From Escherichia coli (lineage in GTDB: Bacteria > Pseudomonadota > Gammaproteobacteria > Enterobacterales > Enterobacteriaceae), in assembly GCF_044324785.1 (NCBI RefSeq), contig NZ_CP172127.1: DNA of 64,000 bases; one strand, given 5' to 3'. The position numbers and the translations under genes were made by a program. The stretch's first letter is position 1. Every line of letters begins with the position of its first letter. This document shows, piece after piece, positions 31,820 through 36,413 of the stretch. The notes under the pieces are model-generated. The model had not been told where the DNA came from, searched no databases, and saw only the letters and a list, made by a program, of their open reading frames with translations.

Positions 31820-33340
31820 ATGTCTTCTCATCCGTATGTCACCCAGCAAAATACCCCGCTGGCGGACGATACCACTCTGATGTCCACTACCGATCTGCAA
31901 AGCTATATCACTCATGCTAATGACACTTTTGTGCAGGTGAGCGGCTATACCTTGCAGGAGTTACAGGGTCAACCGCACAACATGGTGCGTCACCCGGATA
32001 TGCCAAAAGCGGCATTTGCGGATATGTGGTTCACCCTGAAAAAAGGGGAGCCCTGGAGTGGCATCGTGAAAAATCGCCGCAAAAATGGCGACCATTATTG
32101 GGTGCGGGCCAATGCGGTACCGATGGTGCGCGAGGGAAAAATCAGTGGCTATATGTCGATTCGTACCCGGGCGACGGATGAAGAGATCGCGGCGGTGGAG
32201 CCGCTGTACAAAGCGCTAAATGCCGGACGTACCGGTAAGCGTATTCATAAAGGCCTGGTGGTGCGTAAAGGCTGGCTGGGTAAACTGCCTTCATTACCGC
32301 TTCGCTGGCGGGCGCGTGGCGTGATGACCCTGATGTTTATCTTGCTGGCGGTCATGCTTTGGTTTGTTGCTGCCCCGGTGGTGACGTATATCCTCTGTGC
32401 GTTAGTGGTATTGTTGGCAAGCGCCTGTTTTGAATGGCAGATTGTGCGCCCGATAGAAAATGTCGCCCGTCAGGCACTGAAGGTGGCGACCGGAGAGCGT
32501 AATAGTGTTGAGCATCTGAATCGCAGCGATGAGCTGGGGCTGACATTACGCGCGGTAGGGCAGCTTGGCCTGATGTGCCGTTGGCTAATTAACGATGTCT
32601 CAAGCCAGGTGTCCAGTGTCAGAAACGGCAGTGAGACGCTGGCGAAAGGCACCGATGAACTGAACGAACATACCCAGCAGACAGTTGATAACGTTCAGCA
32701 AACGGTGGCGACCATGAACCAAATGGCGGCGTCGGTGAAACAGAACTCTGCCACGGCGTCGGCTGCCGATAAACTGTCAATCACTGCCAGTAATGCGGCA
32801 GTGCAGGGCGGGGAGGCGATGACCACGGTGATCAAGACAATGGACGATATCGCCGACAGTACCCAGCGCATTGGCACCATTACTTCGCTGATTAACGATA
32901 TTGCGTTTCAGACCAATATTCTGGCCCTGAATGCGGCGGTGGAAGCGGCGCGTGCCGGCGAACAAGGCAAAGGTTTTGCAGTGGTGGCAGGGGAAGTGCG
33001 TCATTTAGCCAGCCGCAGCGCCAATGCTGCCAACGATATTCGCAAGCTGATTGATGCCAGTGCTGATAAGGTGCAATCCGGTTCGCAGCAGGTACATGCA
33101 GCCGGACGGACGATGGAAGATATTGTGGCACAGGTGAAAAACGTCACCCAATTGATCGCCCAGATTAGCCATTCAACGCTGGAACAGGCCGATGGGCTTT
33201 CCAGCCTGACCCGTGCAGTGGATGAGCTTAACCTCATCACCCAGAAAAATGCCGAGCTGGTGGAAGAGAGTGCGCAGGTGTCGGCGATGGTGAAACACCG
33301 CGCCAGCCGACTGGAAGACGCGGTGACGGTGCTGCATTAA
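31820..33340 (+). CDS. aer: Aerotaxis receptor Aer (PAS-FAD, HAMP, MCP signalling domain)
   Basis: 506-aa [37 protein letters not shown]...; C-terminal MCP signalling domain. Confidence 0.95.
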
Positions 33341-33368
33341 TCGGTATGTCGCATCCGGCAATCGGTGA

Positions 33369-33992
33369 TTAATCCAGTTGCGTAATATCAAAAGCGGCGC
33401 GGTCGATCACCGCAATGATCTTTTTTATTTGTGCATCAGTGATATCGCTCTGGTTGACGCGTAAATCCAGCACCGCTTTAAAATTATCCAGCGCCCGCTT
33501 CATTTGCGGGTTCTGGCGCAGCGCTGCGCCAACGCAACGCGCTTTGATGCGTTCTTCAATCATCTTCACCTGTTCGCGGTTTTCTTCCAGCCACTGCGCG
33601 CCTTGTTCGGTCAACGCAATCTGCTTCTTACCACCTTCCTCTTCGCGGATGGTAATCAGCGACTGCTCCTGGAGAAAATCCAGCGTCGGGTAGATGACGC
33701 CCGGGCTTGGGGTGTAATTCCCCTGGGTCAGATTTTCAATCGCTTTAATCAACTCGTAACCGTGGCTGTCATCGCGCGAGAGAATATCCAGAATCACCAG
33801 ACGCAATTCACCGTGACCAAAGAAACGCTGCCGACGACCGCCGCCGCGACCGTGGCGACCACCGCAGCATTGACCGTGTTCATGCTGGTGACCGTGTCCG
33901 CAGTGCTCGTGTTCTGACTTCTCACCTTTGCAGCAGCCCTCATGGCGTGGCTGGCCTTCATGTTTACAACACCCTTCGTGATGATGGCTCAT
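33369..33992 (-). CDS. yqjI: PadR-family regulator YqjI (NfeR) with His/Cys-rich N-terminus
   Basis: 207-aa ORF MSHHHEGCCKHEGQPRHEGCCKGEKSEHEHCGHGHQHEHGQCCGG... Confidence 0.9.
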   Translation of the reverse strand: MSHHHEGCCKHEGQPRHEGCCKGEKSEHEHCGHGHQHEHGQCCGGRHGRGGGRRQRFFGHGELRLVILDILSRDDSHGYELIKAIENLTQGNYTPSPGVIYPTLDFLQEQSLITIREEEGGKKQIALTEQGAQWLEENREQVKMIEERIKARCVGAALRQNPQMKRALDNFKAVLDLRVNQSDITDAQIKKIIAVIDRAAFDITQLD

Positions 33993-33994
33993 AT

Positions 33995-34268
33995 CAGCCT
34001 CCTTTTGCTTAATTAGATATATCTAATTTATATCTGATATGAGCATTACTGCAAGTACAAAAATGATTTTTAAACGTGAATACACCTCACATCCAGGCCG
34101 GATAATACGTTCATGCCGCATCCGACAGCCTTGCTACGACGCTGAATGTCTTCTCATACTTCAGATATATCAGTTCTACAAATCGCTTGCATTTATCATG
34201 ATTAACAATCATTATCATTTGCGAAATTTATTTAGATATATCTGATTACTATCACGAAGGCGATAACA
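33995..34268. promoter_or_regulatory. Divergent yqjI/yqjH control region with probable Fur box and repeated AGATATATCT palindromes
   Basis: aacaatcattatcatt at about 34204-34220 resembles the Fur box; GATATATC-core palindromes at about 34015-34024, 34064-34071, 34234-34243; REP-like element at about 34096-34133. Confidence 0.5.
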
Positions 34269-35033
34269 ATGAATAACTCCCCCCGCTACCCGCAGCGCGT
34301 TCGCAATGATCTGCGCTTCCGTGAACTGACTGTGCTACGCGTTGAGCGTATTAGCGCCGGTTTTCAGCGCATTGTCCTTGGCGGCGAGGCGCTGGACGGT
34401 TTTACATCGCGCGGCTTTGACGATCACAGCAAACTCTTCTTTCCTCAATCTGATGCTCACTTTGTGCCGCCAACGGTAACGGAAGAGGGTATCGTCTGGC
34501 CGGAAGGACCACGCCCACCGTCGCGTGACTATACGCCGCTGTATGACGAACTACGCCATGAACTGGCGATTGATTTCTTTATTCACGAAGGTGGCGTCGC
34601 CAGCAGCTGGGCAATGCAGGCGCAACCGGGCGATAAACTCACGGTGGCAGGTCCGCGAGGTTCGCTGGTGGTGCCAGAGGATTACGCGTATCAGCTGTAT
34701 GTCTGCGATGAATCCGGAATGCCCGCACTGCGCCGCCGCCTGGAAACGTTGAGCAAACTTGCCGTTAAACCGCAAGTTAGCGCGCTGGTTAGCGTGCGGG
34801 ATAACGCCTGCCAGGATTATCTCGCGCACCTTGATGGTTTTAATATCGAATGGCTGGCACATGATGAGCAGGCAGTAGATGCGCGTCTGGCGCAGATGCA
34901 AATCCCTGCCGATGATTACTTCATCTGGATAACCGGCGAAGGCAAAGTCGTTAAGAATTTAAGCCGCCGCTTTGAAGCGGAACAGTATGATCCACAGCGG
35001 GTACGTGCAGCGGCTTACTGGCACGCAAAGTAA
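34269..35033 (+). CDS. yqjH: Ferric-siderophore reductase YqjH (NfeF), FAD-binding
   Basis: 254-aa ORF MNNSPRYPQRVRNDLRFRELTVLRVERISAGFQRIVLGG. Confidence 0.9.
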   Translation: MNNSPRYPQRVRNDLRFRELTVLRVERISAGFQRIVLGGEALDGFTSRGFDDHSKLFFPQSDAHFVPPTVTEEGIVWPEGPRPPSRDYTPLYDELRHELAIDFFIHEGGVASSWAMQAQPGDKLTVAGPRGSLVVPEDYAYQLYVCDESGMPALRRRLETLSKLAVKPQVSALVSVRDNACQDYLAHLDGFNIEWLAHDEQAVDARLAQMQIPADDYFIWITGEGKVVKNLSRRFEAEQYDPQRVRAAAYWHAK

Positions 35034-35086: not shown

Positions 35087-35162
35087 TGGTGGCCCCTGCT
35101 GGACTTGAACCAGCGACCAAGCGATTATGAGTCGCCTGCTCTAACCACTGAGCTAAGGGGCC
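35087..35162 (-). tRNA. ileX: tRNA-Ile(CAU), lysidine-modified minor isoleucine tRNA
   Basis: Minus strand reads GGCCCCTTAGCTCAGTGGTTAGAGCAGGCGACTCATAATCGCTTGGTCGCTGGTTCAAGTCCAGCAGGGGCCACCA: 7-bp acceptor stem, CAT anticodon, encoded CCA end. Confidence 0.9.
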
Positions 35163-35286: not shown

Positions 35287-35793
35287 ATGGTTGAGGATAT
35301 TTTGGCTCCAGGGTTACGGGTCGTGTTTTGCGGTATCAACCCTGGGCTTTCATCCGCCGGGACTGGTTTTCCCTTTGCTCATCCGGCAAATCGCTTCTGG
35401 AAGGTGATATATCAGGCCGGGTTTACCGACCGTCAGTTGAAGCCGGAAGAGGCGCAGCATCTGCTGGATTATCGTTGTGGCGTCACCAAACTGGTAGACC
35501 GTCCAACGGTGCAAGCCAATGAAGTTTCAAAGCAAGAGCTACACGCAGGCGGGCGTAAGCTGATTGAAAAAATTGAAAATTACCAACCACAAGCGTTGGC
35601 GATTCTGGGCAAACAAGCATATGAACAGGGATTCAGCCAGCGCGGTGCACAGTGGGGGAAACAAACGCTCACCATTGGTTCGACGCAGATTTGGGTGCTG
35701 CCAAATCCCAGCGGTTTAAGTCGCGTTTCACTGGAGAAACTGGTTGAAGCGTATCGCGAGCTGGACCAGGCGCTGGTAGTGCGGGGCCTGTGA
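35287..35793 (+). CDS. mug: G/U mismatch-specific DNA glycosylase Mug
   Basis: 168-aa [41 protein letters not shown]. Confidence 0.95.
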
Positions 35794-35849: not shown

Positions 35850-36413
35850 TTATTCTTCCGCCAAACGGTCTCTGACTACCATAAGCGCAAATCCCAGCAG
35901 ATTTTTCCCCTTCCAGTGAGATGGCACACCGGCATGAGGATGATCTTTTGCAAGGCCAATCCCCCAGAGTTTATCCACCGGGCTGGCTTCAACCAAAATG
36001 CGGGACTGTGTATTTAGCAAGAATGTTTTCAATGCCGAATGTTGGCTAAATTTGTGATAGTTCCCTTCACAGACCAGCTCAAAGCAACTGGCTTGCCAGC
36101 GTTGTTCATCAAAGTTTGTCACCTGCCTCCCCAGCTTTTTGGCTTCTGCCGGGGTCGCCGCCGCCAGAATTCTGGCAAGCGTTTTACTGTCATTAAACAG
36201 CCGCGCTTTTCCTGCCATCATCCAGTGCTCTGCGGTAGCGTAGGTTATACCACCATAGGTAAAAGGCGAACCCTGCCACCACTGACTAAAGCAAGAGGCG
36301 GTAATTTCGTTATTCGAGGCAGGTTGATGGCCCCAGAACCACAGGTATTTCACTTTTTTCCCGGAATCAAGGGCGGAAAGAAGGGCGGGGAGAGAATAGT
36401 ATCCTTGCTGCAT
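35850..36413 (-). CDS. NADAR-domain (YbiA-like, DUF1768) protein
   Basis: 187-aa ORF with hallmarks of the YbiA/NADAR family (...GITYATAEHWMMAGKA...WGIGL...GKNLLGFALMVVRDRL); sits between rpoD and mug. Confidence 0.7.
   Translation of the reverse strand: MQQGYYSLPALLSALDSGKKVKYLWFWGHQPASNNEITASCFSQWWQGSPFTYGGITYATAEHWMMAGKARLFNDSKTLARILAAATPAEAKKLGRQVTNFDEQRWQASCFELVCEGNYHKFSQHSALKTFLLNTQSRILVEASPVDKLWGIGLAKDHPHAGVPSHWKGKNLLGFALMVVRDRLAEE

Follow-up and report, generated by a model that had tools for sequence, protein, structure and literature searches.

Two conserved palindromes and a Fur-box-like array in the divergent nfeR–nfeF spacer of an Escherichia coli genome

The spacer analysed here is the already characterised control switch between nfeR (yqjI) and nfeF (yqjH), and we describe no new biology; what the comparative data define is its operator, TAGATATATCTA, plus an 11-bp-offset repeat at one of the two sites (site II). 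Divergent control of the two genes very probably works through NfeR bound to the two outer palindromes of the spacer (sites I and II) and through a Fur array over the nfeF core promoter, with a REP element carried along as a passenger. The region ties nickel stress and iron status to iron release from siderophores.

The window, a stretch of 64,000 nucleotides, contains the two genes and the features collected in Table 1. The ends of the flanking open reading frames, at 33992 and 34269, delimit a spacer of 276 bp (33993-34268), exactly as the initial annotation had it, with nfeR on the minus strand on one side and nfeF on the plus strand on the other. In NfeR, the PadR domain (PF03551, E 2.5e-15) occupies residues 67-136 and is preceded by a tail whose residues 1-50 are rich in His and Cys; among NfeR homologues the wHTH region is nearly invariant and the N-terminal tail variable. 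The protein is 99% identical to E. coli NfeR, and NfeF, with FAD_binding_9 and SIP domains, is 98% identical to its K-12 counterpart. Of 5426 complete E. coli genomes, 5421 match a 1665-bp nfeR–nfeF segment at 95-99% identity along 80% or more of its length, and there the matched segment carries the annotation NfeR and NfeF. These matches, their annotation and the PadR, FAD_binding_9 and SIP domains bear out the original naming of the pair as yqjI and yqjH. No NCBIfam family scored above cutoff for either protein, and among solved structures the matches were distant PadR proteins only, with none of NfeR or of an NfeR–DNA complex.

Table 1. Features of the nfeR–nfeF region (window coordinates). 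Sequences and positions are as observed; promoter and operator roles are predictions.
Feature	Positions	Strand	Description
aer	31820-33340	+	Window neighbour; 3′ end faces the nfeR 3′ end
nfeR (yqjI)	33369-33992	-	207-aa ORF; PadR-family repressor, His/Cys-rich N-terminal extension
Probable nfeR ribosome-binding site	33998-34003	-	AGGAGG, read from sequence; putative function
Site II	34011-34028		18-bp perfect palindrome AATTAGATATATCTAATT, core GATATATC at 34016-34023; candidate NfeR operator, nfeR promoter
Site II extension	34029-34035		TATATCT, direct repeat of 34018-34024 offset by 11 bp; overlaps predicted nfeR -10
Predicted nfeR promoter	34027-34054	-	-35 TTGCAG (34054-34049), 16-nt spacer, -10 TATAAA (34032-34027)
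Decayed REP	about 34095-34128		Escherichia-specific insertion; homologous to the intact K-12 REP
Middle octamer	34164-34171		GATATATC; lineage-specific full palindrome of conserved half-site TATATC (34166-34171)
Predicted nfeF promoter	34187-34215	+	-35 TTGCAT (34187-34192), 17-nt spacer, -10 CATTAT (34210-34215)
Fur-box-like array	34198-34222		Overlaps the predicted nfeF core promoter including its -10
Alternative nfeF promoter prediction	34201-34230	+	TTAACA (34201-34206), 18-nt spacer, ATTTAT (34225-34230); from PMC3946193
Site I	34234-34243		10-bp perfect palindrome AGATATATCT, 35 bp 5′ of the nfeF ATG; candidate NfeR operator
Probable nfeF ribosome-binding site	34256-34260	+	GAAGG; putative function
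nfeF (yqjH)	34269-35033	+	254-aa ORF; siderophore-interacting, NADPH-dependent ferric-chelate reductase

The corresponding region of K-12 has the same genes in the same orientation, and the two spacers share a mean column identity of 93% (K-12 MG1655). No base differs between the two in the outer palindromes, the site II extension, the Fur block or either -35 region. The K-12 spacer is longer (287 bp) owing to an 11-bp indel beside the REP; K-12 also has an intact REP hairpin, GACATATC as its middle element and a spacing of 230 bp between the two sites, whereas in the window the REP is decayed, the middle element is GATATATC and the spacing is 219 bp.

Control of yqjH by Fur and YqjI, which had been proposed for this spacer at the outset, finds ample agreement in the literature. 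In E. coli, nfeF is under repression by NfeR, which nickel lifts; in K. pneumoniae, deletion of nfeR derepresses nfeF 85-fold, and nfeR affects virulence in an insect model (PMC7981267). Nickel also induces nfeR (PMC9508795). The yqjH gene is a member of the Fur regulon with a putative Fur motif and is derepressed in a fur mutant (PMC9501238, PMC3212961, PMC9508795). Our literature search found no secondary source that gives NfeR footprint coordinates or an operator sequence. In work on K-12 that appeared in J Bacteriol in 2011 (Wang, Wu and Outten) and 2014 (Wang et al.), YqjI was reportedly located on inverted repeats in both promoters, with two sites, one per promoter, and with a footprint that is extended at that of yqjI; these sites are said to lie ~200 bp apart and to cooperate, both being needed for full repression, and the REP elements are said to be dispensable.

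Four copies of GATATATC occur in the window, at 34016, 34164 and 34235 and, inside mug, at 35406; 0.48 copies would be expected by chance, and none of 100 shuffles reached four. The initial annotation had counted three core palindromes in the spacer, and all three are there, but the one it placed at about 34064 was off by 100 bp: we inspected the sequence at 34064 and found nothing motif-like, and the true position is 34164. The outer two copies extend to the perfect palindrome AGATATATCT (34015-34024 and 34234-34243). The middle copy reads AGATATATCA (34163-34172), so that it is palindromic over its 8-bp core only.

Canonical PadR-family operators, such as those of PadR and LmrR, are of the ATGT-N8-ACAT type. 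This type is absent from the spacer, which has a single match with one mismatch (34146-34161), and the total of 16 one-mismatch matches in the window falls below the chance mean of 23. The candidate NfeR operator is unlike it, being a compact palindrome of A and T only. NfeR also differs from typical PadR proteins in its metal-binding His/Cys tail, which they lack; what it shares with the canonical proteins is a dimeric winged-helix repressor and a palindromic operator that overlaps the promoter, with divergent or adjacent targets.

For the comparison across Enterobacteriaceae, a profile of twelve NfeR homologues yielded 80 loci from a one-genome-per-species set representing more than 25 genera. 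The divergent nfeR/nfeF arrangement is found in 77 of 81 loci, the other four being interrupted by contig ends. Spacers are about 235-240 bp long outside Escherichia (with shorter and longer exceptions) and 274-287 bp within it. In 14.9 kb of these spacers GATATATC occurs 127 times, versus 6 times in 326 kb of flanking sequence, which is an enrichment of more than 400-fold; only one of 77 loci has fewer than two copies. The outer palindromes keep fixed distances to the genes: site II lies ~20 bp from the start of nfeR, and site I precedes that of nfeF by about 34 bp.

An alignment of 63 spacers, expressed in window coordinates, gave a phylogenetic footprint with islands at TAGATATATCTAATTTATATCT (34014-34035), TGCAAG (34050-34055), TATATC (34166-34171), CTTGCA (34186-34191), CAATCATTATCATTT (34206-34220), TTTAGATATATC (34231-34242) and the nfeF ribosome-binding block, CACGAAGGC; the stretch from 34060 to 34160, REP included, is unconserved. 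The proposal that the palindromes are YqjI operators, and as such conserved among enterobacterial orthologues, survives this comparison for the two outer ones, and the Fur block is conserved as well, but the middle one is not conserved as a palindrome, only as a half-site.

The core of site II is near-invariant over the 63 aligned spacers and occurs in 76 of 77 loci; 51 of 81 loci share an identical 18-mer here, TATATCTAATTTATATCT, and ATTTATATCT recurs at +11 from site II in nearly all loci. RpoD holoenzyme bound the spacer in gSELEX, for which TTGCAA-16-TATAAA was predicted as the yqjI promoter (PMC3946193). The TTGCAG-16-TATAAA that we infer for nfeR matches that listing, and the conserved TGCAAG fits its -35. 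If so placed, the promoter would have its -10 within the site II extension and its start point inside the palindrome, an arrangement that suits autorepression: NfeR on site II and on the TATATCT offset by 11 bp would cover both. The CTCC(T) block of the probable nfeR ribosome-binding site is conserved in most genera.

An 11-nt perfect inverted repeat, GCTCATATCAG at 33987-33997 and CTGATATGAGC at 34034-34044, brackets site II asymmetrically, with one arm over the nfeR start codon. It is present in K-12 and is not conserved outside Escherichia.

At the other end of the spacer, TTTAGATATATC, which includes most of site I, matches in at least 90% of the aligned spacers, and site I usually starts 28-37 bp before the nfeF ATG (in a few cases up to about 46 bp). 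We also considered a repeat offset by 11 bp at site I (TATC, 34250-34253), like that of site II, and rejected it; it is not conserved outside Escherichia. About 90% or more of the spacers retain CTTGCA and CATTAT, on which the predicted nfeF promoter is based. A consensus promoter and terminator scan of the spacer returned nothing at threshold, and the RpoD holoenzyme gSELEX prediction for nfeF is a different one, TTAACA-18-TTTTAT (PMC3946193). With TTGCAT-17-CATTAT, the Fur array would lie over the promoter's spacer and -10 and site I at ~+12 to +21, and with the TTAACA-18 alternative site I would fall at the start point. Because the two predictions differ and match the consensus weakly, it is uncertain where site I lies with respect to the start point; on either one, Fur and NfeR would each overlap or abut the core promoter.

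The Fur-box-like string aacaatcattatcatt occupies 34204-34219, which leaves 49 bp between it and the nfeF ATG, and confirms the earlier report of such a site just 5′ of yqjH, albeit with a modest consensus match. Enterobacterial Fur boxes have a 19-bp consensus, GATAATGATAATCATTATC, built of overlapping hexamers. The best match here is 14/19 at 34204-34222 on the minus strand, followed by 13/19 at 34198-34216 and at 34204-34222 on the plus strand, so that overlapping matches of 13-14/19 are offset by 3 and 6 bp. Since 61 of 2000 shuffled spacers (3%) reach at least 14/19, the match is modest by consensus count, and for this reason our Fur call leans mainly on the literature and on the near-invariance of the block CAATCATTATCATTT, which matches in at least 90% of the 63 aligned spacers. 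As with other Fur boxes, the array would cover the core promoter of a gene for iron assimilation, in a block conserved across genera; given its only moderate consensus score, we treat it as a candidate site.

These features suggest how the switch may work. An NfeR dimer would most likely sit on the two outer palindromes with a GATATATC core. At site I, which would coincide with the nfeF start point or lie shortly downstream, it would block nfeF transcription. Nickel or iron on the His/Cys-rich N-terminal tail would weaken DNA binding and so derepress both genes. Independently, Fe2+-Fur would bind over the nfeF core promoter, which would make nfeF iron-responsive as well. We consider it very improbable that the main protein on the palindromes is not NfeR but another, such as PepA or an AT-preferring nucleoid protein. 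The nfeF/nfeR spacer was the sole site in the K-12 genome bound by PepA in genomic SELEX in vitro (PMC8249747), and FlhDC gSELEX also gave a strong peak there (PMC9962212), but gSELEX peaks do not resolve the bound sequence; the motif, moreover, goes together with nfeR (76 of 77 loci) and hardly occurs in flanking sequence, and the nfeR deletion by itself is what brings the 85-fold derepression of nfeF.

The distance between sites I and II has its mode at 184 bp (183-186 bp in 38 of 61 spacers); in Escherichia it is 217-230 bp, longer because of the REP insertion. The comparison across genera shows the 184-bp spacing to be the ancestral state and the REP to be an insertion confined to Escherichia. 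The near-constant separation would fit the published idea of cooperation, possibly through a DNA loop; as Escherichia tolerates 217-230 bp, any looping geometry is not strictly constrained. A Rayleigh analysis of the site spacing gave R = 0.51 for a period of 11 bp and 0.28 for 10.5 bp, values that we judged unreliable, since several periods were scanned and the cluster at 182-186 bp inflates them. Repressors that loop DNA between two operators (GalR, DeoR, AraC, LacI) offer a parallel in that here, too, two candidate operators ~180-230 bp apart flank or overlap divergent promoters. Wang et al. (2014) reportedly found the two NfeR sites to cooperate. For the NfeR pair the spacing is strongly conserved, it showed no robust helical periodicity, and the DNA loop is a putative one.

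A few loci depart from this spacing. Much shorter distances between sites I and II (96-97 and 120 bp) occur in L021 and L030 (Enterobacter), L017 (Silvania), L039 and L044; in L021 and L030, site II is a cluster of three motif copies at 11-bp intervals (positions 17, 28 and 39). Enterobacteriaceae bacterium LSJC7 (L057) has a spacer of 537 bp, and its site I and the predicted start of nfeF are 331 bp apart, which points to either an insertion or a wrongly called start codon.

The REP-like element noticed in the initial annotation is real, but it has decayed and lost its hairpin. It aligns, with substitutions, to the K-12 REP, GGCCGGATAAGGCGTTCACGCCGCATCCGGC, and so is homologous to it in sequence, yet its hairpin has a folding energy of -4.6 kcal/mol (z -0.17) versus -14.7 kcal/mol (z -3.55) in K-12 and is not the stable imperfect hairpin of a REP; the copy in the window is a decayed remnant. 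Its columns are not conserved outside Escherichia, and it would be a passenger insertion in that genus. We took a 68-aa open reading frame at 34039-34245 to be spurious because it spans this non-conserved insertion. A permissive Rfam scan of the spacer found no RNA family. The indel beside the REP (at about 34128-34135, in comparison with locus L001) consists of GAGTAATGATG, which is present in K-12; its 11 bp, about one helical turn, account for the step in site spacing from 230 to 219 bp. Other REP-type copies occur elsewhere in the window, among them one at about 33345-33365 (CGCATCCGGC at 33350-33359), in the short gap that separates aer and nfeR at their 3′ ends.

The middle octamer behaves differently from sites I and II. 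Among the loci compared, the full GATATATC at this position is found only in the window, in E. albertii and in three Mangrovibacter species. While sites I and II are invariant, the middle element is GACATATC in K-12 and GATGTTTC in another E. coli; by exact match of a 40-mer around it, the window allele is present in 667 and the K-12 allele in 1923 of 5426 complete E. coli genomes. What is shared more widely is part of it: at 40-90 bp 5′ of site I, TATC is present in 58 of 61 spacers and TATATC in 40 of 61, mostly at 63-66 bp, and in other genera this half-site is followed by an A-tract and then by the nfeF -35, CTTGCA. Because the palindrome is polymorphic, degenerate in K-12 and a half-site elsewhere, we regard it as a candidate only; judged by these alleles, this third palindrome is no conserved operator but an elaboration, variable among strains, of a half-site that is conserved.

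Two explanations of the half-site can be weighed, and because its distance to the -35 is as fixed as that to site I, contact with NfeR and a role in the promoter are not separable by position. One is that TATATC and the A-tract 5′ of the nfeF -35 are promoter architecture, either an UP-element-like contact for the alpha subunit of RNA polymerase or the site of another factor, and that the likeness to a full NfeR palindrome in this strain is incidental. On this we are evenly divided: an A6 tract lies directly 5′ of the conserved CTTGCA in nearly all genera, and conservation does not extend to the left half of the palindrome, but TATATC is an exact NfeR half-site, conserved beyond what an AT-rich UP element requires, and in Escherichia the A-tract is disrupted while TATC is usually kept.

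The other explanation is that this strain has a third functional NfeR operator in the middle octamer; together with site I, which follows 71 bp further on, it would enclose the nfeF promoter, and in other genera the TATATC half-site would be an auxiliary NfeR contact. We find this possible, if rather unlikely. Its core is identical to those of sites I and II, and the match to site I extends to 11 nt, perfect and inverted (34161-34171 versus 34235-34245); the half-site is as widespread as described, at a distance of 63-66 bp that corresponds to about six helical turns, and the full octamer arose independently in Mangrovibacter. Yet the element is degenerate in K-12, whose allele is the more frequent of the two in complete genomes, and lost in another E. 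coli, with sites I and II invariant throughout, and other genera conserve the half-site alone. The published work of Wang et al. reportedly describes two sites only.

A more general form of this idea would have the nfeF promoter bracketed across Enterobacteriaceae by the TATATC half-site (63-66 bp 5′ of site I, at ~-50) and site I, with site II ~184 bp away as the distal point of a three-point nucleoprotein loop or wrap. We think this unlikely; were it true, E. coli alleles with the full palindrome and those with the degraded one, as in K-12, would differ in how tightly nfeF is repressed. In the reading that we favour, with NfeR on the two outer palindromes, the middle octamer would be a polymorphic completion of the TATATC half-site by the -35/UP region of nfeF.

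The surroundings of the spacer hold some further observations. Beyond nfeF, the window also carries mug and rpoD. A tRNA gene at 35087-35162 on the minus strand, called by ARAGORN as tRNA-Met (CAT anticodon), corresponds to ileX, tRNA-Ile(CAU), in the K-12 annotation. A gene for a 187-aa NADAR-domain protein (35850-36413, minus strand) separates mug from rpoD, its direct neighbour in K-12; the NADAR gene is found in only 62 of 5426 complete E. coli genomes, SMS-3-5 included, at only 93% identity. The nfeR–nfeF segment, for its part, is at least 99% identical in one complete E. coli genome only, that of strain N3. Given the rarity of the NADAR gene and the identity of this segment, a divergent Escherichia lineage is the probable source of the window.
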